From a virus (Duplodnaviria; Heunggongvirae; Uroviricota; Caudoviricetes), in IMG/VR virus record IMGVR_UViG_3300017971_000019, positions 1 through 64,000 of that record: a stretch of 64,000 bases of DNA; one strand, given 5' to 3'. Below are positions 1 to 63,797 of this stretch, one piece after another. A program made the translations under genes and the position numbers. Below the pieces are notes generated by a model. It saw only the letters and a list, made by a program, of their open reading frames with translations. It did not search any database and was not told where the DNA came from. Every line of letters begins with the position of its first letter. Positions within the stretch are counted from its first letter, which is position 1.

Positions 1-87
1 GCACGGGTCACCGAGGGTCACGCTCCCGGCGTCCACGTCCACGAGACCAACCTTCTCCCAGTCCGGCTCTCGGTCGTAGTAGCTCAT
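1..87 (-). CDS. hypothetical protein, N-terminal 29 codons only (gene continues left of window)
   Basis: Minus-strand ATG at 85-87 preceded by AGGAGG (reverse complement of 90-100). Reading frame stays open to position 1. Confidence 0.4.
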   Translation of the reverse strand, partial: MSYYDREPDWEKVGLVDVDAGSVTLGDPC

Positions 88-96
88 GTCTGCCTC

Positions 97-498
97 CTAG
101 TGTCCGAAGCCCATGACGACCACTCTGTCGAAGCTGTCGCCGTGCGTCTGGATTGCGTTGAGCATGGCTATGGCTGCGTCGTATGCCCAGTAGCCTCGGC
201 CCAACCCCTCCTGGTCGATGAGGACACGCTGGTCCTGGGCGAGAGCCCAGACAACCTTGTGCGGCTCCATGACGCTCAGGGCGTCACCGTACCGATCCTC
301 AAGAACCTGGGTGTCACCGTCGTCGGCGTAGAAGTAGACGCCAGCCTTCGCTGGCTTGCTGTCGCCGTGAAGCTCGTAGAACGCGCCAGGGAACAGCTTG
401 CCAAGCTCGACAGAGCCCAGCACTCGACCCCATTGCTTGCCGTCACGGTCCTTGTGTCGGCTCACGTCAACGATCTTCAACGTCACTTCGTATCCCAT
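97..498 (-). CDS. hypothetical protein (133 aa)
   Basis: ORF track. AGGAGG ribosome-binding site 6 nt upstream of the start at 498. It tiles with neighbouring minus-strand genes. Confidence 0.6.
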   Translation of the reverse strand: MGYEVTLKIVDVSRHKDRDGKQWGRVLGSVELGKLFPGAFYELHGDSKPAKAGVYFYADDGDTQVLEDRYGDALSVMEPHKVVWALAQDQRVLIDQEGLGRGYWAYDAAIAMLNAIQTHGDSFDRVVVMGFGH

Positions 499-507
499 CG
501 ATGCCTC

Positions 508-729
508 CTATCGGCTCAGGGTCAGGTTCTTGAACGGAGTGGCCTCAAAGTGATCGATGCCGTACTCATCGACGTACTCCTCGAAAGGGGGGAGGGAGGG
601 GAACTGCTTCCGGTGATCCCGGTATGCCATCTTCACCACTTGCGTGGCCTCCAGGTCACCGAGTCCAAACCCCATGAAGGTGTAGTTCTCGCCTCGCATG
701 ATGGCGAGCTTGAGCTTCATCTTAGGCAT
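508..729 (-). CDS. hypothetical small protein (about 73 aa; start trimmed from the ORF-track 508..771)
   Basis: Internal ATG at 727-729 is preceded by GAGGAGGAGG. The start overlaps the stop of the upstream gene. Confidence 0.5.
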   Translation of the reverse strand: MPKMKLKLAIMRGENYTFMGFGLGDLEATQVVKMAYRDHRKQFPSLPPFEEYVDEYGIDHFEATPFKNLTLSR

Positions 730-929
730 CACTCCTCCTCCTCGATGATCTGGTCGATCTCCTCCATGCACTCCAGCACACTGCCGCAGGAGCCATGTCG
801 GTTGTCACACTCGGGGCAACAGAAGTCCGAGTGAACGTAGTGGTAGTCGCTCGTCCGCACCGGGATGGGCGGCGGATCGAACGTGATGATGTAGCCTCGG
901 TAGCTCACCGGGAATGCCTGTGGGGTCAT
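729..929 (-). CDS. hypothetical Cys-containing small protein (66 aa; CCPECDNRHGSCGS)
   Basis: ORF track. GAGGTG ribosome-binding site. Start and stop codons overlap those of the flanking genes. Confidence 0.5.
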   Translation of the reverse strand: MTPQAFPVSYRGYIITFDPPPIPVRTSDYHYVHSDFCCPECDNRHGSCGSVLECMEEIDQIIEEEE

Positions 930-1096
930 ACGATCACCTCGTGAAAGCCGATCTCTGCCAGAAGAGTGGGGACGTTGAGGATGCTCTTGATCCGCCTGGC
1001 CTCCTCACGCGCCTCTTTGTACTCCGCACGTAGCTGGGTATGGATCTCCCAGTCCTCGTCGCCGGAAACCAGGATCCAGTAGGTTGCCTCAGTCAC
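926..1096 (-). CDS. hypothetical small protein (56 aa, GTG start)
   Basis: GTG start preceded by AGGAGGGG. The stop overlaps the ATG of the downstream gene (ATGA). Not in the ORF track because it is under 60 aa. Confidence 0.35.
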   Translation of the reverse strand: MTEATYWILVSGDEDWEIHTQLRAEYKEAREEARRIKSILNVPTLLAEIGFHEVIV

Positions 1097-1105
1097 GGTC
1101 CCCTC

Positions 1106-1396
1106 CTATCTGTGGATTGAGTACTCGGGCAGGCGCAGGATGCGCTCGATCTCCAGCGTGGCCTGCACGCACGGCTCGGTGTCGAGGGCTCCCCACCGGG
1201 CCAGCCCCTCCTTCGCCACGAGGATGACCCACTTGTGGTACGCCTCCTGGCCTGCCTTCACGTCACCGGCACGCACGTTGTGCAGGGCCTTGCGAAGGAG
1301 CTTGGTGCAGGCTCGCGCAGCCGCACCGACACCCTTCATGTCGGAGTACAACTGCCAGTCATGGATCGTGATCACTCCGACTGCCTCTCTCCTCAT
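1106..1396 (-). CDS. hypothetical protein (96 aa)
   Basis: ORF track. GAGGAGGG ribosome-binding site upstream of the ATG at 1394-1396. Confidence 0.55.
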   Translation of the reverse strand: MRREAVGVITIHDWQLYSDMKGVGAAARACTKLLRKALHNVRAGDVKAGQEAYHKWVILVAKEGLARWGALDTEPCVQATLEIERILRLPEYSIHR

Positions 1397-1644
1397 CAGT
1401 CCCTCCTCGGAAGAGTCTCCTCGTCGCTCAGGAGCGTGTACCCCGTGAGCAGGTACTCATCCTTCCAGCGTGCGCCGCACGAGTCGCAACGGATCTCCTG
1501 CGAGGCCCCGCCGTCGAAAACCAGGGGCTGGCCGTCCTCGTGAATGTCGCTGGTGTCACCGCAGACGGGGCAGACCAGCCCTAGCTGGTTGACGTAGTCC
1601 ATGTCGATCATGGGCTCGCCGTCCGGTCCCACTCGCTCTCTCAT
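1396..1644 (-). CDS. zinc-ribbon protein (82 aa; CPVCG...CDSCG)
   Basis: ORF track. GGGAGGGAG ribosome-binding site. Two CxxC pairs. Confidence 0.55.
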   Translation of the reverse strand: MRERVGPDGEPMIDMDYVNQLGLVCPVCGDTSDIHEDGQPLVFDGGASQEIRCDSCGARWKDEYLLTGYTLLSDEETLPRRD

Positions 1645-1658
1645 AGCTCCCTCCCTTG

Positions 1659-1841
1659 TTAGTCGCCCAGTACTGTCGGGCCCACAAACTCCTCGTACAC
1701 GTTGAGGGCGTCACGGGCCTGAAGGAACGCCTTCATGTCGTTCGCCACCAGGTAGCCGTGAATCTCCTTGTCGAGGAGAAGGACACGCAGTGCGTTCGCC
1801 ATCAGACGGCCAGCCATCCTTTCCTTCTGCTCCTGATTCAT
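1659..1841 (-). CDS. hypothetical small protein (60 aa)
   Basis: ORF track. AAGGAGG ribosome-binding site upstream. Confidence 0.5.
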   Translation of the reverse strand: MNQEQKERMAGRLMANALRVLLLDKEIHGYLVANDMKAFLQARDALNVYEEFVGPTVLGD

Positions 1842-1936
1842 TAGGACGCCTCCTTGCGCTCCTGTCGGAGCAGGAAAAGGATCCGACCAAACAGCTTCAC
1901 GTTCTTGTCTGCCTTGGTCATGTCAACCTCTCAGGT

Positions 1937-1960
1937 TTGAGGGGGGATTACTCCCCCCTC
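1937..1960. other. perfect GC hairpin GAGGGGGG-attac-TCCCCCCTC overlapping the stop codon of the 1948..2178 gene
   Basis: Inverted repeat with an 8-9 bp stem, read directly from the sequence. There is no T-tract after it on the minus strand. Confidence 0.4.
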
Positions 1961-2178
1961 TTGCGGCGAAGCCACTCCGAGAACACCTCCCCGAAGGTCA
2001 CCCTCTCGGGCCGATACTCGGTGCAGCCACGCCAACGGAGGGCGGTGCTAGACGACCGCTTGCCCTCCAGCTTGAACTCGTTGTAGTACGCCTCGTCCGG
2101 GCGGTGATAAGCCTCGAAGAGACCGCACTCGCAGCGTTCAAGCTCATGCTCTGGTCCGTACACCGGGTAGCTCGGCAT
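1948..2178 (-). CDS. hypothetical protein (76 aa; start trimmed from the ORF-track 1948..2343)
   Basis: Internal ATG at 2176-2178 is preceded by AAAGGAGGAG. The ORF-track N-terminal extension is Arg/Ser-rich and overlaps the next gene. Confidence 0.5.
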   Translation of the reverse strand: MPSYPVYGPEHELERCECGLFEAYHRPDEAYYNEFKLEGKRSSSTALRWRGCTEYRPERVTFGEVFSEWLRRKRGE

Positions 2179-2188
2179 CACTCCTCCT

Positions 2189-2503
2189 TTACGAACTGGC
2201 GAGGCCGAAGATGAGCCAGCCCTCGCTCCCGTCCTCGTTCTGGTACTTGAATGCCTCGGCGTCATCCCACTTGGAGTTGACCTCATCAGTGCCCATGCGG
2301 CGCTCTGCCTCCTGGACGGCCTCCTGCCGAGTGGGAAGCTCACCGTTCACGGTGAAGTGACGGCGCTGCACGCCGGTCTTCTCACCGATTGTCCCGGTGT
2401 ACCCGCCGTGCCCGTACTCCCAGCGGGCGTCCTCGACCGCGAGGGCGAACCCCCTGGTCAGCTTGGTCTCGTTGCTGTCAACGTAGAACTCCTGCGCTCC
2501 CAT
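2189..2503 (-). CDS. hypothetical protein (104 aa)
   Basis: ORF track. GAGGGGG ribosome-binding site. Amino-acid composition is protein-like. Confidence 0.55.
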   Translation of the reverse strand: MGAQEFYVDSNETKLTRGFALAVEDARWEYGHGGYTGTIGEKTGVQRRHFTVNGELPTRQEAVQEAERRMGTDEVNSKWDDAEAFKYQNEDGSEGWLIFGLASS

Positions 2504-2516
2504 CTCTACCCCCTCT

Positions 2517-2783
2517 CTACACGCACGCGGCGTGCTTAGCCTCGGCCATGACCTGATCCATGCAGTCGCTCAGGTACTCGTCTCCAAGGGAATCGCAGAT
2601 GATCCCCGACAGCGCCCCCTCCCCGACAGCGCCTGTGATGAGGTTCACCACTCGTGCGCGGACGTAGGCGACTGCGAAGACACCATCCTCAACCTGGCGG
2701 CGGTTGGGGTGATCCTCTGCCAGAGGCATATCGTCGTAGTCGCACTCGGTCTCGACGTAGTAGCGTTCGCGGTTCTGGCTCAT
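2517..2783 (-). CDS. hypothetical protein (88 aa; start trimmed from 2867)
   Basis: ATG at 2781-2783 is preceded by GAGAGAGGTG. The stop overlaps the next gene's start. Confidence 0.5.
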   Translation of the reverse strand: MSQNRERYYVETECDYDDMPLAEDHPNRRQVEDGVFAVAYVRARVVNLITGAVGEGALSGIICDSLGDEYLSDCMDQVMAEAKHAACV

Positions 2784-3001
2784 GCAACACCTCTCTCTCT
2801 CATCTCTTCGAAGGCACGCGCCTCGGCCCGCTCGTACATCCGCAGGATCTTGGCGCCCGTGGGGCACGCCTCGCTCCTGAAACCAGGGTTGCCCTCGGCG
2901 TCAATGATGGGGACGTAGCAGTCACCGCACGTCGCGGCGTGACGCTGCGCGACTTGGGCGAGGAGCACGTACGCTCGCTCGTACCGGCTCACCTTGCTCA
3001 T
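2780..3001 (-). CDS. hypothetical Cys-containing protein (73 aa)
   Basis: AAGGAGG lies 7 nt upstream of the ATG at 2999-3001. Contains CGDC...C. Confidence 0.5.
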   Translation of the reverse strand: MSKVSRYERAYVLLAQVAQRHAATCGDCYVPIIDAEGNPGFRSEACPTGAKILRMYERAEARAFEEMRERGVA

Positions 3002-3354
3002 ACCCACGCCTCCTTGTTCGCCTCGTTCCAGAGGATCTCAGCCTCGTTCTCGACGTTCTCGATTGCCTCGTCCAGCCACTTGGCGAGGTCCCCCTCGTCC
3101 ATGCGGAGGTAGCTGGCCCAGTCGAGGATCTGGGTCTCGGTGACCTCGTCGCTGCCCTCCACGATGCTCCCGAGGTGCAGGCCCACCTCGTCCACGTTGA
3201 GCCACGCGCCGCACGCTGTCGCCTTGTACAGGCGGCGGGAGAGACGACTCACGTCCGCGCCCTCCACTCCGAAGTACTCGTTCAACTCCTCCATGAGGGC
3301 GGACCCGGCATTGGCCTGCTCCTCTGCCGCCTGGTAGCTCACTTCGTTCTGCAT
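2998..3354 (-). CDS. hypothetical acidic protein (118 aa)
   Basis: ORF track. Weak GGGAGC ribosome-binding site. Tiles with neighbouring genes. Confidence 0.55.
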   Translation of the reverse strand: MQNEVSYQAAEEQANAGSALMEELNEYFGVEGADVSRLSRRLYKATACGAWLNVDEVGLHLGSIVEGSDEVTETQILDWASYLRMDEGDLAKWLDEAIENVENEAEILWNEANKEAWV

Positions 3355-3359
3355 AGGTT

Positions 3360-3758
3360 CTAGCTCCCGGTAAGAGGCTCGGAGAGGAGCCTGTCAACGT
3401 GATCGGTCACCTCATTGCAGAGGGACACTCGCTCGCTGGCATCTGGGATCACCTCCCAGAGGTATGCGTTCGCGTCAACGTGATCGTGAAGCTCGGAGAA
3501 GGACTCGATCTCGTAGGGGATCCACTCGTTCGCCTGATCCTCGCGGATCACGTCCAGGATGGCGAGAGCGTACTGGTACGCGGGGGAGTCGTACTCCAGA
3601 TCGTGATCACGCTTCGCCCTCTGGACTGCCACGTCATGCAGCGCCTGCGAGGAGAACTTGAACACCTGGTGGTGCCTGTCGAAGCTCACGTTGAAGGCGT
3701 AGCAGATGCCATCTGCGTCAACTGCCTCGATCCGGCTCCCGTCCTTGCTGACTCGCAT
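3360..3758 (-). CDS. hypothetical protein (132 aa; start trimmed from 3971)
   Basis: ATG at 3756-3758 is preceded by GGGAGGAGG. The longer ORF-track N-terminus is Arg/Pro-rich and looks like a wrong-frame artifact. Confidence 0.5.
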   Translation of the reverse strand: MRVSKDGSRIEAVDADGICYAFNVSFDRHHQVFKFSSQALHDVAVQRAKRDHDLEYDSPAYQYALAILDVIREDQANEWIPYEIESFSELHDHVDANAYLWEVIPDASERVSLCNEVTDHVDRLLSEPLTGS

Positions 3759-3994
3759 TATCGGCCTCCTCCCTGCTGTCCGCCGCTCACGCGCCCTGCC
3801 TTGTACTTCAGGACGCCGGTCTCCTTGGGGAAGGTGACCCGCGTGTCGGGCGTATGACGGTACTCCTCGCTCACCTTGCGCCCCATATCCAGATGGCAGG
3901 CGGCGCAGAGGATGACGTAGTAGCCCTCCCGGTACTCTGCGTCGGGGGTGACTGACCGGCAGAAGCGGCACGTCTTGAATGGTGTCCGGGGCAT
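3758..3994 (-). CDS. zinc-finger small protein (78 aa; CRFC...CAAC)
   Basis: ATG at 3992-3994 is preceded by GAGAGGAGG. Two CxxC pairs. Confidence 0.5.
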   Translation of the reverse strand: MPRTPFKTCRFCRSVTPDAEYREGYYVILCAACHLDMGRKVSEEYRHTPDTRVTFPKETGVLKYKAGRVSGGQQGGGR

Positions 3995-4028
3995 GGTTGC
4001 CTCCTCTCTTCGAATCAATGGCTCCCTG

Positions 4029-4226
4029 CTAGACGCAGGGCTCGGCCAGATGCTCCAGAAGCTTCTGGTCCTCGGCCTCGACCATCACCTTGTAGAAGCC
4101 TGCTCCGTAGCGGTGACCGTTCTCGGTGATGAGCCAGCCGAAGTGCTTCACCAGGCGGGCGGAGATCACGTCTCCGTTGGGGCAGTAGACCCCGTGACCG
4201 GCGACTGTGTAGACGTAGTGGCTCAT
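4029..4226 (-). CDS. hypothetical small protein (65 aa)
   Basis: ATG at 4224-4226 is preceded by GAGGGAGGGAG. Confidence 0.45.
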   Translation of the reverse strand: MSHYVYTVAGHGVYCPNGDVISARLVKHFGWLITENGHRYGAGFYKVMVEAEDQKLLEHLAEPCV

Positions 4227-4240
4227 GGCTCCCTCCCTCT

Positions 4241-4681
4241 CTACAGGTGCGACAGTGTCTCGGCGTCCTCGATCCACTCGGCGTTCTCCTCGCGGGGCAT
4301 GAGCCCCTTGCGGACCCGGTAGCAGGGATCACAGACGTTGGTCTTGTACCCGAGGTAGTGGGTCTCGTGGACCTCCTCCCCGCAGTCCGAGCAGGTCAGT
4401 TCCTTCGGCCAAACCGGCTCGGGATCCACGTCAACGCAGCCCCGGCAGAGATCCTCACCAGGGGTCATCACGTCGAGGCATCCGCAGATGCGGCACTCGT
4501 CCTCACGGTAGTACGGGGCGTTCGCCGCCTCGCACTCGCAGTTGATCTCGGGCTCGCACCCGATAGCGTGATCGATCTGGTCCTGCTCGCAGTCCGCGCA
4601 GTCCCCGCAGGGTGCGTCGGCGGAGCAGTTGGCGAGAACGTCCTTCAGCCCGTCATTCCACTCGGTCATATCGGCCTCCAT
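4241..4681 (-). CDS. cysteine-rich protein (about 143-146 aa; more than 20 Cys in CxxC, CxC and CxxxC arrangements)
   Basis: ORF track. An alternative ATG at 4667-4669 has a GGAGG ribosome-binding site. This is the last gene of the leftward block. Confidence 0.55.
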   Translation of the reverse strand: MEADMTEWNDGLKDVLANCSADAPCGDCADCEQDQIDHAIGCEPEINCECEAANAPYYREDECRICGCLDVMTPGEDLCRGCVDVDPEPVWPKELTCSDCGEEVHETHYLGYKTNVCDPCYRVRKGLMPREENAEWIEDAETLSHL

Positions 4682-4912
4682 TGTTCTGCCCCCACTCGAC
4701 TCCGAGTCACCTCTTCTAGGTCTTGGAGGCGGGTCTGTACGCGCCGCCTCGGGAGCAGGACAATGAAGGCGAGGAGCCCACCAGGCGTACGGCCCGTGAC
4801 ACTCGTGGACTCCTCAGCCCTTCCTTTTGTGCGAGTACCCTCCGAAGACATGATCGGCCTCGATCTAGTAGACGTGCGACTCGGGCTCTACCTCTTGTGA
4901 GCCCTTGGATCC

Positions 4913-4942
4913 GGTCAGGTCGTTAGAAGCACCTTGGCCCCC
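4913..4942. repeat. direct repeat copy 1 (GGTCGTTAGAAGCACCTTGGCCCCC core)
   Basis: One of three similar copies spaced about 56 and 70 bp apart in a region with no coding signal. Confidence 0.6.
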
Positions 4943-4968
4943 TTCCCGGATCGTCCGCCGCTTGCACC

Positions 4969-4998
4969 GTAGAGGTCGTTAGAAGCTCTCTGGCCCCC
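4969..4998. repeat. direct repeat copy 2 (GGTCGTTAGAAGCTCTCTGGCCCCC)
   Basis: 20 of 24 positions match copy 1. Confidence 0.6.
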
Positions 4999-5037
4999 TC
5001 TGACGGCTGCTAGCCCTCTCTCCCTCGTCCTCTTGTC

Positions 5038-5070
5038 TAGAGGCCGCTTAGATGCTCTCTGGCGGGCCCC
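5038..5070. repeat. direct repeat copy 3, degenerate (GCCGCTTAGATGCTCTCTGGCGGGCCCC)
   Basis: Shares TTAGAxGCTCTCTGGC and a terminal CCCC run with copies 1 and 2. Confidence 0.45.
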
Positions 5071-6078
5071 AGGGGGACGGTGGCGGGCCACCTGTAGCCT
5101 TCCTGATCGTCTGATTGATGCCGCCATGAGGAACCGTGTCCCGCCAGTGACCCGAAGGTCCAACCAGCCGGGGGGTCTCGGGAAGCGTTACATCTGAGAC
5201 TGTGGAAGTGGTAGCCCAGGAGAGAGGTATCAAGACCCGGCGTCTGTCCCTTGTCCCCTCAGCCTGCCGTTGGGCGTGCCCCCTTCCTCGCCGCTTCCCG
5301 GAACGCTCGAACAGCGTGCCGTACGCGGGTCTGAAGGGTCTGAGAGGGGCCGTATAGGACCGCCCCGAATCTCCGTACTCTCCTCGCTTACGTCCTCCCC
5401 TTGCGCCCGAGACCCTTGGTCCCTCGCCTTCCCTCTACTCTTAAGGTCTTGACGGGTTAGTCTCTCTACTCGGGATTCCTCCGGGGGGAGGGGGTGCCTC
5501 TCGCTGCTCGGCCTGCCACTAGCTCGGAGCCGCTAAGCTCTCAAGGCCCGTACCCTTCGACCAACGTCCGCTCCAGGTGTAAGGCCCGCTTTCATGTGGC
5601 TGACGCTCAGATTGCCGGGGCTTGGTGACCCCCTGTCTGCCGCCACCGTCTAACTTCGAGACGCAGTCTACCATGTGTTATGACAGGTGAGTCAAGAAAA
5701 ATCGTACGTGCCTTGAAAATAGCCGGCAAACCCCTCCCTGGCCTAGACTTAGAAGAACACCACCAGGAGGGCAAAACCAGAAAACCCAGACCCAAGGGTA
5801 GAATCACATCATGGCAGACCCAATCGCAGCCGCTCTCTGGGAGGCCCAAAAGGCAGTCGAGAGAGAGATCCACAGGCGGCGCGAGAGGCGCGTTCACGGG
5901 GGCCAGGAGCGGCGTAGAGAGGCGCTACGGGCTAGGTGGGCCCATCTGGTCTCCAGCGTCTCTCAGGACGCTCCAGCGAGCCGAGAGGAGCTTGAGGCGT
6001 CCTTTGAGTGGGGGCGCGGGCGGGTCGAGGACCAGGTGCTCTGAGGGTGTACAAAGAGGTATACCAGCTAACTTGAAA

Positions 6079-6095
6079 CTGAAGTTCAACTTCAG
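6079..6095. promoter_or_regulatory. perfect palindrome CTGAAGTT-c-AACTTCAG (putative operator) just upstream of TATATAAG and an SD-like sequence
   Basis: 8-bp inverted arms, read directly. It sits 30 nt upstream of the ATG at 6125. TATATA at 6105-6110 could serve as a -10 element. Confidence 0.5.
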
Positions 6096-6124
6096 GTTGG
6101 TAGGTATATAAGAAGGTGTATAAG

Positions 6125-6298
6125 ATGAATCAGGTCTACTGCCCGTACTGTGAGCGCATGAGGGCGCGTCTGAGGGTGCTCTACAACGAGCGCCACGAGC
6201 GGATGTGGGGGGCCCAGGTTGCGGCGTATGCCGCTGGCTTCCTGAGCGGGGCCGTGACCATCCTGGTACTGAAGTTCATGATCGACTTGGCCAGGTGA
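6125..6298 (+). CDS. small protein with CxxC and a C-terminal transmembrane helix (57 aa)
   Basis: AGAAGG ribosome-binding site 8 nt upstream. High GC at third codon positions in frame. First gene of the rightward array. Confidence 0.4.
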   Translation: MNQVYCPYCERMRARLRVLYNERHERMWGAQVAAYAAGFLSGAVTILVLKFMIDLAR

Positions 6299-6641
6299 AC
6301 ATGAAACCCGTTTTCATCTTGGTAAGTTGAACATGGGATTCAAGTTCAGGGGCCAGGAGGGGGCTGAGACCCCCCGGAGACCCCCGAAGCAGGGCCCAGG
6401 TGCTGTGACCCTGGTAACCCTAGTCATTGCAACAGGTTGGGGATGGTACAGCCTATAATATGAACTATGTAAAGTTGACAGAACAGTTCAGTTTGGGTAA
6501 GTACTGCCCCATCAACCACCTGGGGAGGGTAGGGGGTGGGGGGTATACAGGTCGAGGTCGGGGGGTGAGGTCTCCAGCGCGCCCCCTCACAATCAGGGAA
6601 TCCCCAGAAAATCCCCAAAAGAACAAACTATGAGGTATGTC

Positions 6642-6914
6642 ATGGCGTGTTTCCATACGAGAGAAGTCACCTGTCCTGAGTGTCGTGGATCTCGGGACCA
6701 GGTTGGGAATCCTGTTGGGGGTCTACCGTACTACATTCAGCCTTCTCAGCCTTGCGAGCACTGCATGTGTGGTCGTGAGACGGTGAACGGACGGGAGCAC
6801 GCTGTGTGCTGTATGTGTGGGCACAGGCGGGTCACGACGCAGATCACGTACACGACGACTGTCGGGACGGGGTATACTTCGCCGTCTACGACGTGGAGAG
6901 GCAACGATGGCTGA
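6642..6914 (+). CDS. Cys-rich zinc-finger-like protein (about 90 aa)
   Basis: ORF track 6630..6914. The ATG at 6642 follows GAGG. Multiple CxxC and CxC motifs. Confidence 0.4.
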   Translation: MACFHTREVTCPECRGSRDQVGNPVGGLPYYIQPSQPCEHCMCGRETVNGREHAVCCMCGHRRVTTQITYTTTVGTGYTSPSTTWRGNDG

Positions 6915-7326
6915 GGTTTCGAATACGGGCCTGAGAGCCGTTCTAACGGCTGCGGTGGGGTCCATGGTCTCGGGGAACGTGAAGAGGGGCCCTGTGAGCC
7001 TCCTGGACGCTCTGGAGGGGAATCTGAAGGGGTGGGGGGAGATGAATCTTCACGACATGGGGCCGGCGGTGAACAGCGACACTCACCAGTGGGTGATTCG
7101 GGCGGTGAGGAACGACGGGGTCTGCTACGCGGCACCGATATCCATTTCGGGTCTGGAGATGCAGACGCTATCGAGGAACGACCTGGTGAACGTGTTCAGG
7201 CTCAAGGTGGAGCAAGCGATGAGGGGTCTGGAGGAGCTACGTCGGTGCAACTGCCGGATGGATCCTGACCGGGGGCTTGTCCACTGCGACTCACACCCTC
7301 AACTGCTGACAGGTGTCAGTGAATGA
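6907..7326 (+). CDS. hypothetical protein (139 aa; start trimmed from 6817)
   Basis: The ATG at 6907 overlaps the upstream stop. The longer N-terminus is Arg-rich junk. Confidence 0.45.
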   Translation: MAEVSNTGLRAVLTAAVGSMVSGNVKRGPVSLLDALEGNLKGWGEMNLHDMGPAVNSDTHQWVIRAVRNDGVCYAAPISISGLEMQTLSRNDLVNVFRLKVEQAMRGLEELRRCNCRMDPDRGLVHCDSHPQLLTGVSE

Positions 7327-7693: not shown

Positions 7694-8239
7694 ATGAGCT
7701 TTGCCATCCTCGACGGAAAGGCCCTCACGTCGTCGATCACAGACGAGGGCCTCGTGACGTGGGGAGTCTGGATGGCCATCCTGGCCGACAAGGACCAGGA
7801 CGGAATCACCTCCCTCAACCCCCGCTTCCTCGCCAAGGTCTTCGGACACGACGTGGCCGAGATCGAGGAGGCCTTCAAGACCCTCTCCTCCCCAGACCCG
7901 CACTCGAAGAACGAGGAACACGAGGGACGACGCATCATCCCCGTGGACGGAGGACGCTGGCTCGTCGTGAGTCATGAGAAGTACCGGCAGATCTACCGCA
8001 AGGAGGTCCGCCGCGACTACCTCACCCAGGCGAAGAGAGCGCAGCGCGAACGCGAGAAGAGAGAGAAGCTGTTCACGAAAGACGAACAGCCGCCAGAATT
8101 GAACAAGACCGAGAAGACCGAGCAGGAAATCCTTCAGGAGGCCTTCATCGCACCGGACAAGAAGTGTAAGCACGAGGGCTGCCAGGTGAGGCCGCTCGAC
8201 GGCGACTACTGCTACGACCACTTCATGACAGGCTTCTAG
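7694..8239 (+). CDS. hypothetical protein (181 aa); the N-terminus loosely resembles a phage replisome-organizer or DnaD-like protein
   Basis: Strong AAAGGAGG ribosome-binding site. ORF track. The resemblance comes from memory only and is weak. Confidence 0.7.
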   Translation: MSFAILDGKALTSSITDEGLVTWGVWMAILADKDQDGITSLNPRFLAKVFGHDVAEIEEAFKTLSSPDPHSKNEEHEGRRIIPVDGGRWLVVSHEKYRQIYRKEVRRDYLTQAKRAQREREKREKLFTKDEQPPELNKTEKTEQEILQEAFIAPDKKCKHEGCQVRPLDGDYCYDHFMTGF

Positions 8240-47589: not shown

Positions 47590-50500
47590 ATGGCAAAGCT
47601 ATACCTCGATCCAGAGACAGGCGAAGAAGTCACAGCGAACGAGTTCAGGAGGCGTCGAGCCAGGAGGCAAGCCGCCTCTGAGGGGCAACCTATCGCTGAC
47701 TTCATGTCCCCGACGCGTCAGCTACTTGGGATCCCAGAGCCTGGGACCATGTTCTCTACCGAAGAGCAGAAGGACGTTCCAGAGGGTCATCTGTCTGGGT
47801 ATAGGAAGAGGAAGACTTACCTCGATCCGGCCACCGGAGAAGAGGTTGATGAGATTGAGTTCCGTGCCCGCAAGGCGAAGCGTGAGCGTGAGAAGGAAGA
47901 GCTAGATAAGAACGCAGCGGAGCGGAAGAGGGCCGAGGAGATAGCGGCGAAGGACCGCGAGATTGCGGAGAGGGTCACCCAGGGGATCCCGTTCGAGCCG
48001 CTTCGGAAGCTTGCCGCGTCGAAGCCAGCACGCCTTGCCATGGAGACCGCCACGGGGCTACCCCGCACCATCGGTTTGGACTTCCTCCTTGGCCCAGCCG
48101 AGTCTGACGTTCAGTTGCTGGGCGCCGGCGAGAGGGCCGCGACGAGGGCTGGCCGCAAGCGCGGCAGGGCCATGATGCCGACGGTTGGTGGTGGCGGAGT
48201 TCCTGGCGTCCCGGACATCCCGACCGGACTAGAGGCTGATGAGGACAGGTACGTCACAGATCTCCCGACCGGCGTCAAGGAGCTTGGCGACAGGACATGG
48301 GCGTCCGACCTAACCCAGGAGACCATCGACAAGATCAAGGCGATCCAGCTACCAGGCAGGAACCCGTTCACCGACGAGCCGCTCGCTGAGGGCGAGCAGC
48401 CGTACGCGTCTGTCGGCGGAAGTGTCGGGGTCTCGCCAAGGGTCGCTGAGGCCCTTCGCGATCCGTTCATCTACAACAACGAGGTCGAGTTCTCGCGTAC
48501 CGCCAGGTGGAGGTCCGGGATTGAGGAGGCCATTCGTCCAGCCATGTTCGGCGCTGGGGAGAGCTTCGAGACAGCGAAGGATGTCGCGCTCCCAGCCGCT
48601 GTTGCGTACGGCGCAGTTAGGCGACCATGGCACACGATTCCTGCTATCGCTGGTATCGAGCTTATGTCCATCCTTGGCGAGAAGGGCGCGAGGGCGGCTT
48701 CACAACACCTAGGCGAAGACGAAGAGCGGATGGCCCAGATCGGGCGAGAGATTCCGATGGCCCCTGCCGGCCTGAAGGTCGGCCCAGCATTGACGAAGGC
48801 GGGTCTCAGGGCTACATCTCCCCTACTGGGGAAGGCGAAGACTCGCAAGTGGCTTGCGCGGGGCGCTAGGACCAACAACAGTCGCGAAAGGTCCATTGAC
48901 CTTGAGGTGCAGCGAGTCACCGGGAAGACTCTGCTCCAGACTCTCCGAGACGTTGGGCGTGGCGCTAAGTGGTGGACTCAGGAGAGGACCACCGATGGCC
49001 CGTTCATGGCCATGAGGCGTGAGCTAGGTGCTCGTAAAGATCTGGCTAAGGGCTTCCAAACTCCGTACGCGAGGCGCGGCATCACTCAGGAAACAGCGGA
49101 GAAGCTGAGAGACCTCCAGGATCCGCGCTGGAGGGATAAGGCTGACTGGTCACAGCCTGTTGGGGAGAGGGGCGACTTCCTCGGATGGAGGGCGAATAAG
49201 CAGGGCAAGCTGGAGCCGGTCTACGCGCCGGCATCTCCAGTCAGAACTGATGCCCCGCCTGGCCCAGGCAGGGGTGTCATCTACGACCAGGAAGGCAACG
49301 TCAAGGACACGTATGACCTGGACGCGCAGGGCAAGCCTGTCGGTGCGTCTGGAGGAGTAGACGTTCCCGAAGCCGTTCGTCGCTACGCGCCGATGACCGC
49401 TGGGTACATCGCCCAGGGCATGACATTCTCGAAGTGGCCACTCCCTCTTGGAAGGTTCGCAGCCGGTCGTTTTGCAAACCTCGGTGCCAGAAGGCTTGTC
49501 TCCAGAATGCTGGAGGGTGTGAGGAGGAAGAAGCCCGCCCGCAACGTTGAGGCGTTCGACGCGGAGGCCAACGAGTTCGTGATGGTCCCCGAGGACGCAC
49601 TAATCAACAACCCTGCGAAGTACAAGACCAAGGGTCAGGGTGCGCGAATCCTCAAGGAGAGGGACGCTCTTCGTAAGGCGAGGGAGAAGGAAGCCGATCA
49701 GGCTCGCAAGGCCAAGGAAAAGGCGGACGCTGAGGCGAAGAAGGAGCAGGAGAAGCTCCAGAAGGCCGTAGAGGACGCGATCAAGCAGGCTGAGGCTGAG
49801 CAGCAGTCTCGCCAGGGCATGTCCTCGACGCTCTCCCCGCAGGAGGGCTCCAAGATCATGGAGATCATGGAGCACCAGGTTGCGGTAGAGCGCGTCATGA
49901 AGGAGATGGGCGTTGACCGCGTAGAGGCGGAGAGGATCCTCAAGCAGCGCGGCGATGTTACTGCTCCAGAGACTCCTATCGAGTCCGCGAAGTTCAAGTC
50001 TGGAGATATCACAGAAGCCGATATCTTGAAGGCTGCTCAGGATGGCGCGACCCCGGAACAGCTTCGCGCCATGCGCGAGAAGCTCGCCCAGAAGGGTGAG
50101 CCAACGAAGCCGGCAGAGCCTCCAAAGCCTGAGCCTCCTGCGGAGCCTGTCGCAGAGCCTGCCCCAACGAAGCCGAAGGCTCCCGAGGGTGAAGGCGGAG
50201 CCGAGACCGTTGAGTCTCTTGGTGGGACGGGACATCTCTCGAAGGGCCAGCTTGGTGCCTTCAGGCAGAGAGTGGAGATGGGCGAAGACCCGGTCACCGT
50301 CCTGAAGCAGATCAACGAGTACAGGCGGAAGAAGGGACAGTCGGTTCCAGAGTCGAAGCCTACTGAGCCGGCGAAGGCGCCGCCTGCTGAGCCTCCAGCG
50401 GACACGTCGCTCGACAGGACAAGCGGGACTATCCGCACGCGTCGAAAGAAGCAGGAGCGAGACAGGAATCTCGGTGAGGACGCCCCCGAGGACGCAGCCG

Positions 50501-53500
50501 TGTTTGAGCCCATCGTAAAGGGTCAGGAGGTTGGAGACGGAGTCAGGATCGGTGACACCTACGTAGACGTATCGGGCGAGACTCCACGCACTGTTCGCGT
50601 CGAGGGACAACTAGACACGCGTGGGAAGATCCGCCTTCATCTCGTTGACGCAAAGACGGGAGACTGGGTCTTGGGTGAGCCGACGAACGGGCACAGTTTC
50701 CTGAAGGGGCTTAGAAAGGACATCAAAGACGGCCTGATCGAGAAGCCAGCCGAGAGGCCAACCAAGCCAACCGCTCCGAAGGGCGGGAAGTCCGGTAAGG
50801 CTCAGGAGCCGTTCGACACGACCACGCCTGAGGGTCGCGCAAAGGCGTTCGCTCGCGAAGGTGGTCCTACCGACGCCGAGTGGAACCAGATGGGCGGCAA
50901 CATCGCGAAGCGTGCGTGGCTTGAGTCGCAGGGGAAGACAGGCGAGCCTCGCATGACCGGGCCTACGCCGGAAGGGCTTGAGGGGCCGGCGGGCAAGGCT
51001 CTCTCCGAGACGCAGACGCCTCCGACAGAGAAGCCGTCGAAGGGGAAGGGCAAGAAGAAGAAGGGCAAGCCTCGTCCAGGAGTCATCCGCAAGGGTGACG
51101 TTGTCGAGTTCGCGGACGGGACTCGCGGGATCGTCAAGGGCAAGGGAAGGAGCGGGGGCCTCAAGGTTCAGGTCGGAGAGACGACTCGTCTCGCCACACC
51201 GGACCAGGTGAAGAAGGTCGAAGCGAAGGCTCCGACTCCAGAGGAGCGCCAGGCTGCGCTCGACAAGGTCAAGGAACTCGGTGAAGGCAACAGGGGAATG
51301 CTGGAGCGCGAGTTCTACGAGTCCGGCCCAGAGGCGGCTGTCATTCTGGGCACGGAGAAGATGGGCCTCGAAGAGCCGGTAGTCCGCTCGTTCATCGAAT
51401 CCCTCCCTGAGACGAGGCCCCCAGCCACCCCAGCCGAAGCCGCTGTCGAGATCACGAAGGGCAGCTTCAAGGGCCAGAAGGGTGTCCCAATCGGGGAGGC
51501 CGACGCCAAGGGCGTGACCAACGTCATGCTCGAATCCGGCGAGGTCCAGCCCTTCAAGGCCGGCGAGTTCAAGGTGCTCAGGGGATCCGGGAAGGACGCA
51601 GATATTGCGGCCACCATCAAGAAGGCCGAGGAGGACGCTGGGATCGAGTGGGGAGAGCCCCTAAAGGGCCCTGAGAAGGCCCCAGAGGCTCCAGGAGCGC
51701 CTGTAGAGGGCAAGAAGGCCCCAGAGGCCGGGAAGCCGGCTACGGGCCGTAGGGGGGCTTGGAGCGGCCTTGACGCGGCTGTTCGAGAAGGGGACCAGGC
51801 GAGGGCCAGCAGCATCGCCCGAGGGGCTGTCAAGGACCCCGAGGCCAGCGCCGTGGTCGGCGGGCAGGGTGTCAGGGTCGGGGACGTGATCGAGTCCGGG
51901 CCGCACGCCGGGAAGATGGTTCTGGAGGTTCAGGACGGGGCCGTCGTCCAGATGACCAAGAAGAAGTTCACCGGGGGTGGGGGTCGCTACCAGGTCGGAC
52001 GGGTGACCACCGTCGGGGAACTCACCGCCCGCCGTGCCCGCCCGAACTACCAGGGCTACTACTCGCAGCTTGAGAGGGTGCTGGAGACTCCACACGTTCA
52101 GGAAACTCAGGTTGCCCACGACTGGCTCCGCTTCCTCAAGAAGCGCAAGCGCGGCGTGACTGCCGACGAACTCTACTGGACAGGCCTAGAGGAGTTCCTG
52201 AAGTCGAAGAAGCCGTGGGAGCGAGTAACCAAGGGCAAGCTCCTTCAGTACCTCAAGGACAACAAGGTTGAGTTGTCCGAGTGGAGGCAGGGCGACATCC
52301 ACCAAATCGACTTCAATAGCCCGGCCCAGGTGGACGCGTACGTTCGTATGTGGGAGCGCAGGGCTAGGGAGTCCGGTGTCTACACGGAGCAGGAAGTCCG
52401 CAACATCGGTGCCGCGATGCGTAACGACCCGATGTCTAGGATTGACCAACTCAGGGAGGACATCACGAAGCCTGAGTACGGCGACTACAAGGAACCGGGC
52501 GGAACGAACTACCGCGAGTTCATCGTGACGATCCCGTCGAAGAGTGTCCCGACTCCACTCCGCTATCGCGTCGAGAGCATGGACAGGTCCATTCCCCCGG
52601 AAAAGAAGGCGAGGGTGGACGAGCTAAACGAGGAGAAGGGCGCACTGGAAGCCGCCCTGGTCACAGAGTTCGGCGCAGTCTTCCGAGTGAGGAGGGGCGA
52701 GCCGAGAGTCAAGCCGCGCCACCTCAAGGATAAGGATCGAATCCTAGAGATCAACAAGGAGATCCAGAAGATCCGAGAAGAGGGCGGGGAACTCTGGACC
52801 GTCGAGTCTTACTGGGCAGACAACGGAGTGCAGGCGAAGTCTCCAGGGACAGGAGGGACTTACAAGTCCAAAGCGGAGGCAAAGGCGGCAGCGGAGAAAC
52901 TAGCCAAGGAGAAGCCAACCCACGGCAGGCTTCACGCCAAGTGGGACGCACCACACTTCTCGCATCTCAACGCACAAGGGGGCATCCTCTACCACATCCG
53001 CATGACGGACAGGATCGACCCGGCAACCGGAGAAAAGATCCTCTTCGCTGAGGAGTTCCAGTCCGATGCCGCATGGGACGCCAAGAAGAAGGGAGTAAGG
53101 AAGCCAAACAAGGCCTGGCAGAAGGATCTGGAGAGGTTCAACGAGCTTAGCGATAGGAATCGAGAGATCAGGAACAAGCGCGACACCTCTTCCCTGACTA
53201 AGGACGAGAAGCGTGCGCTCAAGGCGGAGTACGAGCGAAACTCCGAAGAGATGCAGCGCATCAACAACAAGTACGGCGAACACCCAGGCTCTGGCGTACG
53301 TGGCTTCATGGGTCGGAAGGACGTGCCTACCGAGATGCCGTACATCGAGTCCACCAACAAGTGGCTCGACCTGGCCACGAAGCGATTCATCAAGATGGCC
53401 GTAGAGGAAGGCTACGATCAGGTCCGCTTTACTTCCGGCTCGATGCAGACTCGTCGCTACGACCTCTCTCAGAGGGTGGATGAGGTCCGTTGGGATCCCG

Positions 53501-56500
53501 CAGAGAAGAGGCTAGAGGGATACAAGGACGGCGAGAACATCCTCAACGAGTACGATGTCCCTGCTGAGAAGCTCGCGGACTACATCGGTGAGGAACCGGC
53601 TGCGCGGCTCAGGAGGGCGGCGCAGAACTGGAAGGAGCCCGACCCGCTTGGTGGATGGGGGATCGAGCAGGCAAGGCGACCAGGCGAGTTCTACGTCATC
53701 GACCCGAATGGCCAGTACGTCTACACCAGGGAGGGTAAGAGGGACCTCTTCTACGGTAAGGATGAGGCCAGGAACTACATCGAGGAATCCATTCGTGAGT
53801 CTGGCGACACAGTGAGCCAGATCCCGGCAATCTCTGGACAGGATCTCTCGATGGGCTCCACTGGCCTCGCGAAGCTCTACGACGTGATGATTCCGCAGTC
53901 CTTCAACCGCGTCCTCAAGCCGTTCAGGACTCAGGGTGAGACCATCTACCGCCTAGAGGGAGACCGCCTGACGAAGACGGTCGAGGGCGCGAAGGGACCG
54001 AAGCTCGAAGAAGGGCAGATGGGGGAGAATTCGTACACCAAGAGGTACGAGGTCAGGGAGCACCCGGATCAGGCTCTGGCAAACCAGGGCGCAATGGCCA
54101 TCTATGATCTGGGCACCGAGACGTGGGCGAGGTCCACTGACCCACGTATGCCTATCGATCCTGATCTTATGGCGATGAGAAAGCGCCAGGGGGTAACGGA
54201 CACCACTGGAGCTAGGGCCAACTACTTCAAGAGCGCAGCCGACGCACGTCGCGTAGCGTCTGAGATGAACCTCGACTACGCTCACGACAGGATGGCTGAT
54301 GGCGTTCTTAGCCGCTTCAAGTACAACGTCGTTGATGCGAAGACAGGCAAGATCGTCAGGACGGTCAATGAGCCCTGGCAGACGGTGGACGCTGTGCGGG
54401 AACTCGAAGGCAAGAGTGGCCGCGAGTACGTTGTAGAGCCTGCCGGCGAAACCGTACACACCATCAGGATCCCGGACGAACTCAAGCGCCAGGTCGAGAA
54501 GGAAGGGTTCCCTCAGTACAAGATCGGCAAGGAAGACCTCGTAGAGACCCCGATCACGACGGAAGACGTGCGCATGGCTCTGCCAGAGGCGCTGCGTCCA
54601 CTCCTCAAGAGGGCCACGAGGACGGAGACCAGGCCGGCGGGGAAGGGGAAGGGAGAGGTTCGCGCAGACGCGAAGATGGGACTCCGTGCCGGCGACTGGT
54701 ACATCGACACTCCTCACGGTGGAAGGATCATCATCAAGCAGAACGGGTTCATCAGGATCGAGAACCCGGAGCAGTCGCTGGTCGGATACTCGCCGGAAGT
54801 CATCGCAGACGTGAAGGCCGGCAAGCGCGGCGCACTGGGCCGCATGGAGACGCCAGGCCAGGGTCCGCTGGTTCCGAAGTACCGCCGCAAGTACGGCATC
54901 GACCGCGACATGCAGATGCGCATCCTCAACGCGGGAGTCATCCCGCACGAGATGGGCCACATCTTCATCGACTACTTCGCGAGCCCCAGGGAGAAGGCAC
55001 GCATCGAATCCTGGTTCAGGGAGGAGATGGAGGCGAAGGGCCTAGAGAAGTATGACGAACTGTTCGCTGAGGGCTTCAGGGAGTGGTTCGAGTCCTACCG
55101 CTGGAAGAAGAAGCCTCGCAACGCTGTCGAGAGGGTGTACAAGGCGATCTACGAGTTCGTTGCGAACGTCTACGACACCTTCCGCCCGACAATCGAAGGC
55201 CAGTACAGGAAGGTCGCCCAGGGCAAGCCGTTCAAGCGTGGTCGCCACCAGGATGGATGGGTAGGAAGGACTGCTAAGGAGGCGTACCAGATCGCGGCTC
55301 GCGAGGTCGGAGACAGCGAAGCCAACTTCATGAAGTGGTTCAAGAAGTCTGTCGCCAACACCCAGTGGGACCAGATGAGCAAGGGCCAGATGGGCGGTCT
55401 CAAGCTTGGCAAGCACCCAGAGGGCTACCCGCACTACGGCCACGACAAGATGCCGTTGGAGCTATACCACGCGACCATCGCGAAGGCAGACTTCGACGCG
55501 TTCAAGCCTGGTAGCAGGCCAAGGTACGTGGACCCGGCCAACCCAGACGCCGACTACGGACGTGGCGTGGACGGCATGGGCATCTGGTTCGCAGAGGATG
55601 CCGAGTTCGCGAACTCCAAGCTCCGGTTCGACTGGATGGCTGAGGACATGAGGCGAGGCGGGCCTCCGCCGGACCACAACGCCATCCGCAACCCGGAGGG
55701 CCCCATTCCCGAAGGGGGAAGGATCATTCCCGCTTATCTCTCCCTCCAGAAGCCGCTCTTTGTACGCGAGAGGCGCGATCTCGACTACGAGGTAGCGAAG
55801 AAGTGGGCGCAGATCGAAGCCAAGGATCCCGCAAAGAGTGCGAAGGCCAAGAAGAGGAGCAAGAAGGCGAACAAGGCTCTCCTGAAGGTCGATAGGGACG
55901 TGAGGAACTACGTCAACGAGCTTGCCGACAAGTACGCCGTTCCGAAGGGTGGTGGAATCACGTTCCAGGACAGGCTGCTTATCGCCTACGACAGGATCAA
56001 CGCTGTCGAGCGTGCCAAGCTCATGGAGTACCGCAGGGCGGGTGAAAAGGCTAGGCTGGAAGCCGCTATCGCTGAGGCAGAGATGACCGGCAACCCGGAG
56101 GCGTACCTACAGACCCTCAGGCGCGGAGACCCGAAGGACATCGCGAGGGCCAAGAAGGCTCTCCAGTCCGAGGGCTACGACGGGTTCCTCGTGGGCGACG
56201 ACATGGGCTTCGGTCGCGCATGGGTGGTATTCGAGGGCGAGCAGATCAAGTCCTCCAGGGCGAACGTCGGGACGTACGACCCGAAGAACCCTGAGTACCG
56301 CCACATGATCGAGCCTGAGCGTGCGAAGAAGCTCAAGACCAGGAAGCACCTTCCAACAAGGCGGGAGTTCGCAGAGGCAGTCCAGAACACCAAGGGCGCG
56401 GCGATCACAGAGGATGGGCTCATCATGGAGCTTCAGCGTTGGCAGAAGCCAGACCAGGCTGGAGCACTCTCCATCAGGACCGGGGTCTTCTACCTACCTA

Positions 56501-63723: not shown

Positions 63724-63797
63724 TGGAAGGGGCGGGGGGAGTCGAACCCCCGCTGCCTGGTTCAAAGCCAGGTGCTCTGCCGTTGAGCTACGCCCCT
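63724..63797 (-). tRNA. tRNA-Gln (anticodon UUG), with the CCA end encoded
   Basis: The reverse complement folds as a cloverleaf: acceptor stem AGGGGCG/CGCCCCU, U8, D arm GCUC-AACGGCA-GAGC, anticodon arm CCUGG-CUUUGAA-CCAGG, T arm GGGGG-UUCGACU-CCCCC, and a 3' terminal UCCA. Confidence 0.8.

Follow-up and report, generated by a model that had tools for sequence, protein, structure and literature searches.

The window analyzed here is a stretch of 64,000 nucleotides (GC content ~60%) from the ~92.5-kb genome of an uncultured tailed phage (IMG/VR record IMGVR_UViG_3300017971_000019, Caudoviricetes), and the element in question is a gene-free stretch at positions 4670 to 5810, where the direction of the genes switches. 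Our analysis suggests that this stretch probably specifies a leftward-transcribed, structured leader of the early operon, with transcription antiterminated by Nus factors. The stretch carries no coding signal and persists as a gap in related phages, the stems that it encodes covary, and the boxA sequence of the relatives is identical to the genuine boxA of rRNA operons. In terms of class, the proposed leader would be a boxA-headed untranslated transcript holding a new RNA family, its 3′ domain having no match in Rfam.

According to this reading, transcription would proceed leftward from a promoter at 5665-5695, through a structured leader of ~1 kb, and into the small early genes. In most relatives, the transcript would start with a short hairpin followed by an rRNA-type boxA, and the Nus-loaded polymerase would then read through the long untranslated RNA without Rho termination; the Nus complex may also chaperone the folding of the RNA. 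The leader would end in a ~140-nt multi-helix domain just upstream of the ribosome-binding site of the first gene. Finally, the hairpins formed by the direct repeats, which an initial annotation of this DNA had called iteron-like, would present a conserved 21-nt core (RGGCC..R.GCUUYYAACGR) that may replace or reinforce boxA. The elements of the proposed leader, in the predicted direction of transcription, are listed below (R2 is a covariance model of the repeat hairpin, which we call module B; MFE, minimum free energy).

5665-5701, minus strand: putative leftward promoter, with a T-rich tract (5696-5701), a -35 element TTGACT (5690-5695), a 19-nt spacer, and an extended -10 element TGGTAGACT (5665-5673)
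4670-5657, minus strand: predicted untranslated leader RNA of the leftward early operon, ~990 nt, from the predicted start to the base before the first start codon
5530-5549, minus strand: degenerate boxA-like element GGGCCUUGAGAGCUUAGCGG, ~110 nt past the predicted start (a weak assignment)
5042-5068, minus strand: repeat copy 3, stem GGCCGC/GCGG(G)CC around the loop CAGAGAGCAUCUAA; missed by R2
4967-5006, minus strand: repeat copy 2, hairpin CCGU-C-AGAGG / CCUCU-ACGG around the 21-nt GGGCCAGAGAGCUUCUAACGA; R2 score 56.4 bits; present in the MFE and centroid folds
4907-4952, minus strand: repeat copy 1, hairpin GAUCCGG..AGG / CCU..CCGGAUC around GGGCCAAGGUGCUUCUAACGA; R2 score 56.5 bits; present in the MFE and centroid folds
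4674-4838, minus strand: conserved 3′ domain, ~140 nt, multi-helix, abutting the first leftward gene

A gene-free gap conserved at the point of divergence

The same part of the phage genome is identical in three public assemblies (ENA ERZ27256798, JGI 3300028840, and Logan SRR14699966). Genes at 1-4669 of the window run leftward, and from ~5811 onward all run rightward (including those for a DHH phosphoesterase, the terminase, the portal, structural proteins, and a 4825-aa polyvalent protein). The gene calls therefore agree with the initial annotation, in which a region at 4682-6124 divides a leftward from a rightward gene block. That this region is noncoding holds for 4670-5810, which two independent gene callers left empty and in which GC content by codon position shows no periodicity (maximum minus minimum of 0.02-0.14, versus 0.3-0.5 in the flanking genes); the right part, 5811-6124, is less clear. 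The limits of the region need adjustment as well. The left edge of the gap is not at 4681 but at 4669, where a 142-aa gene preceded by a Shine-Dalgarno sequence (GGAGG) has its ATG, and the right part holds a doubtful 77-aa open reading frame (ORF) and a palindrome at 6060-6125. Therefore, the truly empty stretch measures ~1.1 kb rather than 1.4 kb. The CT-richness noted earlier for the plus strand was recovered, with a pyrimidine fraction of 0.54-0.60 and an AT skew of -0.1 to -0.3 up to ~5600; the excess of T over A flips at ~5600-5700.

Megablast of 4600-6200 against 50,697 phage records gave no match, and tblastn with the terminase found relatives at no more than 25% identity among these 50,697 deposited genomes. 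Therefore, the phage has no annotated relative. Scans of viral contigs with single flanking-gene proteins as queries found nothing, and neither did a terminase scan of the genome collection, which leaves the phage without a prophage or host link. Searches anchored on the terminase and then on a 181-aa protein yielded ten further lineages at 44-72% protein identity (identified below by L numbers), and a single metagenome scan gave 7 loci, mostly short. Wherever the sequence of a lineage extends to the divergence point, it has a gene-free gap of 0.6-1.2 kb there, with the following sizes.

L018: ~920 nt
L024-27: ~1190 nt
L030: ~1230 nt
L039: ~890 nt
L042: ~1200 nt (to the first conserved ORF)
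L044: ~620 nt
L017: ~900 nt or more

The gap of a more distant phage, L046, measures 286 nt only. BLAST detected no similarity between the gaps of different lineages, and pairwise MAFFT alignments of the gaps were uninformative; since the gaps cannot be aligned, our analysis is based on motifs and local domains. A gap that is kept as a feature while its sequence drifts argues for a structured or positional element rather than a decayed gene. Consistent with this, peptides from the six frames of the gap lack cross-lineage similarity, except for weak matches to L018 and L042 in several frames on both strands, which are residual DNA similarity. Owing to the U-poor composition of the RNA, the leader does contain runs of 80-190 codons free of stops, and hidden coding capacity was rejected given the lack of periodicity and of protein-level conservation.

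Rfam 15 returned no match at E ≤ 1 for 4000-7000 of the window, except for a 13.9-bit chance match to an internal ribosome entry site, and no match at E ≤ 0.1 for five relatives. Known Rfam families (GOLLD, ROOL, HEARO, OLE, riboswitches, and ribozymes) were rejected, since no covariance-model score came near the gathering threshold.

Putative promoter, boxA, and 3′ domain of the proposed leader

When the right ends of the gaps are aligned on the minus strand, a T-rich tract, TTGAC(T/A), and an extended -10 element (TGGTAGAnT) recur in the window, L018, L039, and L041; other promoter variants are TTGCCG-18-TATATT (L029) and TTGACA-16-TAGTCT (L018). In the window, the -10 element at 5665-5673 places the predicted start near 5657, exactly at the flip in composition skew. 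This conserved promoter bears out the earlier proposal that the region holds control signals of the divergent units.

In L018, L041, L042, L029, and L044, the promoter is followed on the minus strand by ~7 nt, a 5-6-bp hairpin that differs in sequence in each of the five, 1-3 nt, and then GCTCTTTGACAAC or a near variant, after which comes CYNACCGG. With 0-3 mismatches, the 13-mer GCTCTTTGACAAC occurs in seven lineages, always on the minus strand and always at the right end of the gap, 20-130 nt past the predicted promoter and at the head of a gene-free stretch of 0.5-1.2 kb. The relatives' boxA (GYTCTTTGACAAC), which is preceded by the hairpin, reads GCTCTTTGACA in L024 and L029 and GTTCTTTGACA in L017. 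It fits the gamma-proteobacterial boxA consensus GYTCTTTAANA (PMC5725501) at 10 of 11 positions, variants of this consensus being found elsewhere. With A or G at position 8, the consensus has three matches in 324 kb of phage sequence (both strands), all of them at the boxA site of the gaps.

A literature search on the G-variant boxA sequence returned primer matches only. We scanned one genome per bacterial species for the exact 14-mer of L017 (GTTCTTTGACAACT) and ran Rfam on 36 matches. In 4 of these 36 loci, the 14-mer lies in sense orientation 27-135 nt upstream of 16S or 23S rRNA (L084 and L071 from Acidobacteriota, L058 from Syntrophorhabdaceae of the Desulfobacterota, and L094 from WOR-3), and in a fifth, from Gemmataceae of the Planctomycetota (L107), it lies past the spacer tRNAs at the end of a contig. 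The enrichment in rRNA leaders and spacers is of the order of a thousand-fold, which is a rough estimate given that thousands of chance occurrences are expected. In the bacterial rRNA sites, as in the phage leaders, a hairpin lies directly 5′ of boxA. Judged by its placement in these operons, the 14-mer is the rRNA-operon boxA in Acidobacteriota, Desulfobacterota, and WOR-3, and probably also in Planctomycetota.

BoxA-dependent antitermination is known from rRNA operons, lambdoid nut sites, a few mRNAs, and CRISPR arrays. Long untranslated bacterial RNAs, namely rRNA and CRISPR arrays, need BoxA-bound Nus factors to escape Rho (PMC7665894). Therefore, a minus-strand boxA at the head of the gap provides both a strand marker and a candidate mechanism for transcribing a kilobase of untranslated RNA.

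At the opposite end of the leader, the 3′ domain consists of a hairpin (~4768-4812) followed by a long closing stem (~4679-4706 with 4748-4764) around two hairpins, one of which (4728-4748) bears the conserved loop CGCGUAC. In local comparisons, the stems of these hairpins are entirely different between lineages while the loops are kept; for instance, GGCGG/CCGCC, GGCAGG/CCTGCC, ACAGG/CCTGT, and GCTAGG/CCTAGC all enclose ..GYACGCG. For six lineages, RNAalifold gives 30 consensus pairs on the minus strand, with 84% of the cells paired, compared with 42-53% when partners are slid by 1-3 columns, and with changes on both sides in 18 pairs, compared with 4-11 when slid; the observed values were reached in 0 of 500 shuffles. 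Since compensatory changes exceed both the slid and the shuffled controls, the 3′ domain is a conserved structured RNA.

We also ran a covariance model of the domain (R1) without filters. Two lineages outside its training set have R1 matches to the domain on the minus strand, in each case directly against the first leftward gene: L044/L045 (22 bits, E of 4e-5, with 27 of 30 pairs kept at almost no sequence identity) and L030/L031 (11 bits, E of 0.05-0.08). A chance-level R1 match (20.7 bits) on the plus strand overlaps a tRNA-Gln gene. The domain also appears unchanged within the MFE and centroid folds of the whole leader, and the one weak terminator-like site from a consensus scan is part of it. 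In the window, its 3′ end reaches the Shine-Dalgarno sequence, and in other lineages 12-130 nt lie between the two; with this variable distance, conservation does not extend to a simple occlusion of the ribosome-binding site, and the domain is a candidate processing or translational-control element. The motif CGCGUAC recurs on the minus strand of the leader at 4785-4792 and 5321-5327. Both CGCG and GUAC within it are self-complementary, which makes kissing contacts between loops, or a shared protein site, conceivable.

Several lines of evidence bear on the strand. Among helices with a single mismatch, plus-strand A·C (that is, minus-strand G·U) occurs 16 times and G·T 7 times, compared with 5.3 and 5.9 in shuffles, and the R1 structure has 20 G·U and 8 A·C. 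In all 6 lineages compared, the minus-strand version of the 3′ domain has the greater stability, and in all 5 compared for whole-gap z-scores the minus strand scores lower; independent RNAalifold runs yield 30 minus-strand pairs as opposed to 15 for the plus strand. The whole-gap MFE z-scores are inconsistent and, for the window, weak, so that we do not treat them as primary evidence. Altogether, these partly independent lines favor the minus strand; none is decisive alone, and the strand-specific boxA and promoter signal is the strongest. Enrichment of Shine-Dalgarno-like GGAG/GAGG in the leader was inconsistent across lineages.

Direct repeats and alternatives to an early leader

Three related repeats had been placed at 4913, 4969, and 5038. 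The pattern GGTCGTTAGAAGCNCNNTGGCCCCC matches exactly at 4918-4942 and 4974-4998 (0 expected in shuffles), 5 nt to the right of the first two of these starts, and the third copy (~5042-5068) is degenerate, with 81-94% identity over a 16-nt core; the measured spacings of 56 and 69 nt agree with the ~56-70 bp given. In L030 the stem around the shared 21-nt core is CACAGUGA/UCACUGUG, and in L039 it is GUAGCAGGG/CCCUGCUAC. Between copies 1 and 2 of the window, L030, and L039, the stems are wholly different and pairing is kept, a qualitative comparison of four instances. Because double-stranded protein sites have no need of such compensation, we read the repeats firmly as single-strand RNA hairpin modules with a conserved loop and not as double-stranded binding sites.

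Module B has a restricted distribution. R2 has matches only in the window (two, at 56 bits), in L039 (59 bits), and in L030 (44 bits, with a further partial copy); with filters off, it finds no module B in L018, L042, L017, or L044, where no other repeat family was found either. A universal role for module B was rejected, as only three lineages have a match. Covariance searching across relatives, suggested in the initial annotation, thus recovers the 3′ domain in two untrained lineages and the repeat module in three lineages only. Module B occurs in every lineage that lacks a canonical boxA and in no other (Fisher p ~0.03 for the seven fully sampled lineages). From this distribution and the resemblance of the repeats to GGGCCUUGAGAGCUUAGCGG, the repeats could be boxA-derived modules that replace or reinforce boxA, to which we give somewhat less than an even chance. 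The element GGGCCUUGAGAGCUUAGCGG is itself grouped with the repeats by a repeat search (family D2). It lies at the relatives' boxA site and, given two 1-nt gaps, aligns by eye with their canonical GGGCUCUUUGACAACUCACCGG.

Other repeat classes were considered and rejected. TRF found no tandem array. A CRISPR array or repeat mimic disagrees with copies that are 89% identical at periods of 56 and 69 nt, with stems that vary and a loop that is conserved. Type III antitoxins are head-to-tail repeats of ~34-45 nt beside an endoribonuclease toxin gene; a ToxI-like element was rejected because there is no tandem array and the neighboring genes are orphans without Pfam or PHROG matches. K-turn, tRNA-like, CRISPR, ToxI, and N4 hairpin-promoter readings were also dropped by eye, their defining features being missing.

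A number of points weigh against the proposed leader. The production of the RNA, its strand, its start site, the binding of Nus factors, and the role of the repeats are read from sequence, which tempers the reading for the transcript, strand, and start in particular. The window has no canonical boxA, and aligning its candidate at 5530-5549 takes two gaps and leaves four mismatches; what connects module B with boxA is resemblance and a complementary distribution over seven fully sampled lineages. A simple sigma-70 consensus scan missed the window promoter, the spacer of which is 19 nt, and the -10 element of L042 is poor. The central ~700 nt have no demonstrated conserved structure, the folding energy of the whole leader in the window is barely below that of shuffles (z = -1.1), and on one fixed alignment the consensus energies of the two strands are nearly equal (-16.6 versus -15.6). 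In addition, the non-template strand of the leader is G-rich and the leader RNA is C-poor relative to G. The RNA is therefore not an obvious Rho substrate, and the need for antitermination is assumed. The GC-skew minimum and the replication-like traits of a nearby protein, described below with the origin, also count on this side.

It is unlikely, though conceivable, that the ~1-kb transcript is instead a stand-alone large noncoding RNA (ncRNA), made very early, antiterminated, cut at the 3′-domain stem, and used for host takeover. One possibility is that such an RNA would act, through boxA and the boxA-like hairpins, as a decoy titrating NusB/NusE from host rRNA operons; another is that it would serve as a scaffold or a multimeric RNA particle comparable to ROOL/GOLLD. 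In that case, it would rank with the largest ncRNA classes of phages, and no earlier class would have been shown to borrow the machinery of rRNA transcription. Either way, among the options listed in the initial annotation, the evidence favors the last one, a structured ncRNA.

The first of those options, a replication origin, appears quite improbable. Here, the repeats would serve as iterons to which a phage initiator binds (the winged-helix protein encoded at 7694-8239 being a candidate), with bidirectional replication starting at the divergence point. The cumulative GC skew does reach its minimum at ~5-6 kb, as an origin would have it, but this coincides with the switch in transcription direction and is therefore confounded as evidence. 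The 181-aa protein at 7694-8239 (plus strand) is conserved in all relatives and lies 2 kb to the right of the gap, and its predicted winged-helix fold is faintly Rep-like: the best PDB neighbors of the model include the iteron-binding RepE/RepA, at non-significant values (E of 0.02-0.2, TM ~0.3). However, the model is of low confidence (pLDDT 66), and no fold match was significant. A distant homologue, P0054, adjoins a DnaB-type helicase gene and has weak PHROG matches to “replication initiation protein” (E of 0.003-0.008). Judging from these models and matches, the 181-aa protein is possibly a replication initiator, and the true origin may be near.

The repeats themselves do not behave as iterons. 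Iteron origins usually have at least four direct repeats of 17-22 bp in regular helical phase, whereas the window has two to three, with spacings of 56 and 69 bp that are no helical multiple. No AT-rich element adjoins them (GC content of 0.64-0.66 around the repeats), the DnaA box TTWTNCACA is absent from the whole window, and the repeats are absent from L018, L042, L017, and L044, which retain the gap and the 181-aa protein. Furthermore, the covarying stems and the excess of minus-strand G·U point to single-stranded RNA. These results speak against the iteron-like interpretation in all three of its forms (origin, partition site, or transcription-factor sites). A softer variant is possible by analogy with ColE1 RNA II and the transcription-dependent origins of T7 and T4, in which the leftward transcript would prime or activate an origin through an R-loop, which the G-rich non-template strand of the leader would favor.

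A structured RNA on the plus strand, which would start close to or within the 5′ end of the first leftward gene, run rightward, and act as an antisense or separate ncRNA, is in our view very unlikely. Hairpins are possible on either strand, and some helices have G·U on the plus strand only (e.g., the 4686·4759 pair in the closing stem and the inner GGUC/GGCC of copies 1 and 2). Moreover, CTTCGG, a UUCG tetraloop on the plus strand, occurs six times in the L024 gap and three times in that of L030, and the near-equal alifold energies on one alignment fit either strand. However, boxA and the promoter-hairpin-boxA order, for which a plus-strand RNA offers no explanation, are found on the minus strand only, and the left edge showed no conserved rightward promoter. 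The plus-strand excess of A·C over G·T, the MFE and z-scores in every lineage, and the RNAalifold pair counts from independent alignments likewise favor the minus strand.

The least credible alternative is a DNA-level cis element, either packaging or terminal sequences or the counterpart of the T5 injection-stop signal with its DNA hairpins, cruciforms, and host proteins. T5 has a noncoding region of 1.2-1.7 kb with direct and inverted repeats between its pre-early genes and the remaining genome (10.1101/866236), to which the gap is analogous in position, and some assemblies break in or near the gap (L023 at 5003, L028, and L012/L013), although others cross it unbroken. The T5 region is, however, located in a terminal repeat, is conserved in sequence and order, and holds eight paired DnaA boxes, whereas the window has none and its relatives cannot be aligned; cruciform DNA would also give no asymmetry of G·U versus A·C and no reason for a strand-specific rRNA-type boxA.

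Flanking features and comparison with known systems

The features that border the leader are the following.

4241-4669, minus strand: first leftward gene, encoding a Cys-rich 142-aa orphan; Shine-Dalgarno GGAGG at 4675-4679, ATG at 4667-4669, directly abutting the 3′ domain
5811-6044, plus strand: possible 77-aa ORF, Arg/Glu-rich, with modest periodicity (0.16-0.28); called by the JGI but not by the ENA pipeline
6060-6108, plus strand: 49-bp imperfect palindrome (TATACCAGCTAACTTGAAACTGAA/TTCAACTTCAGGTTGGTAGGTATA) before the ATG of a 57-aa gene
6102-6125, plus strand: tandem AGGTRTATAAGA (two copies) directly before the ATG of the 57-aa gene

The 142-aa protein has many CxxC-like pairs and no homologue outside the phage among 5.8 billion proteins, and the whole leftward block consists of small orphans. 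No homologue of the 77-aa ORF was detectable. With a TAGAAT hexamer 6 nt before its ATG and no Shine-Dalgarno sequence, the ORF could be a leaderless mRNA. At the analogous place, L017, L018, and L042 have a small ORF with a common “..AQ..A..AIGLRG” motif, which tblastn does not link to the window ORF. One half of the palindrome has a related copy at 6323-6350, and the GTATAAG tandem is kept before the first rightward genes of L017, L024, and L029. By these sequence features, 6060-6125 is likely a rightward promoter/operator that lies outside the leader RNA.

Further observations concern the assemblies and more distant genes. L023 (Logan SRR14699966, the same phage) begins at 5003 of the window, exactly between repeat copies 2 and 3, and contigs end within a few hundred nucleotides of the gap in L012, L013, and L028, the last of which begins just to its right. 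Such breaks could reflect assembly trouble with repeats and hairpins or real DNA ends. The 4825-aa ORF at 47590-62067 (plus strand) contains ART-PolyVal (ADP-ribosyltransferase of polyvalent proteins) and C5 cytosine methylase domains; giant polyvalent proteins are thought to be delivered together with the DNA. A tRNA-Gln gene (UUG) at 63724-63797 lies on the minus strand, opposite to the surrounding genes. A Tad3 (PF25185) homologue is encoded in L039 (8555-8938) and L040 (8730-9113). The rightward early region of the relatives also encodes an RNA ligase, an NT5C nucleotidase, and a single-stranded DNA-binding protein; the window phage has none of these, Tad3 included, at the same place.

Altogether, a family of uncultured phages of ~92-100 kb appears to head an early untranslated RNA of 0.6-1.2 kb with an rRNA-type hairpin and boxA. 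If true, this would be a new structured-RNA family, with a 3′ domain of good covariation, and a new case of phages borrowing the host rRNA transcription machinery with no known N-like protein; it would also make tractable the question of why a kilobase of phage genome goes to untranslated early RNA. Since the boxA is identical to that of rRNA operons in Acidobacteriota and a few other phyla, it may help narrow the host of the phage group. For annotation, our results caution that intergenic direct repeats in phages may be RNA hairpin modules rather than iterons.

Among known systems, the T5 injection-stop region shares with the gap its place between early small genes and the remaining genome and its noncoding sequence rich in repeats and palindromes; unlike it, the gap lacks DnaA boxes and sequence conservation among relatives, and the evidence favors RNA over DNA structure. 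Iteron origins (RepA/RepE, lambda ori) resemble the gap in direct repeats of ~25 bp in noncoding DNA at a strand-switch point with a winged-helix protein nearby, while copy number, phasing, an AT-rich neighbor, and conservation together with the protein all fail. GOLLD and ROOL are, like the proposed leader, phage-borne structured noncoding RNAs of several hundred nucleotides; the leader differs in having no Rfam 15 match, in being demonstrably conserved at its ends only, and in being apparently contiguous with mRNA.

In the lambda pL leader, the boxA and boxB of nutL are followed by an RNase III-sensitive stem just upstream of gene N. The leader proposed here is likewise an early phage leader, with boxA near its 5′ end and a large stem directly before the ribosome-binding site of the first gene. 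However, the lambda leader is ~220 nt long, compared with 0.6-1.2 kb here, and places boxA before boxB and requires the N protein, whereas the relatives have the hairpin before boxA, as in rRNA, and no N-like protein is known. The BoxA elements upstream of CRISPR arrays (Stringer et al. 2020, PMC7665894) also head a long untranslated transcript with repeated hairpins that presumably escapes Rho. CRISPR arrays differ from the leader, which has repeats that are 89% identical at spacings of 56 and 69 nt, stems that vary around conserved loops, and no cas genes. Finally, unlike the leader and spacer signals of rRNA operons (boxB-boxA-boxC; rrnTAC), the proposed leader is a phage-encoded RNA other than rRNA, with protein-coding early genes downstream, a degenerate boxA in the window, and no boxC identified. 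Like those signals, the relatives have a promoter-proximal hairpin, 1-3 nt, and a boxA equal in sequence to the genuine rRNA boxA, which here too would head a long untranslated structured RNA.

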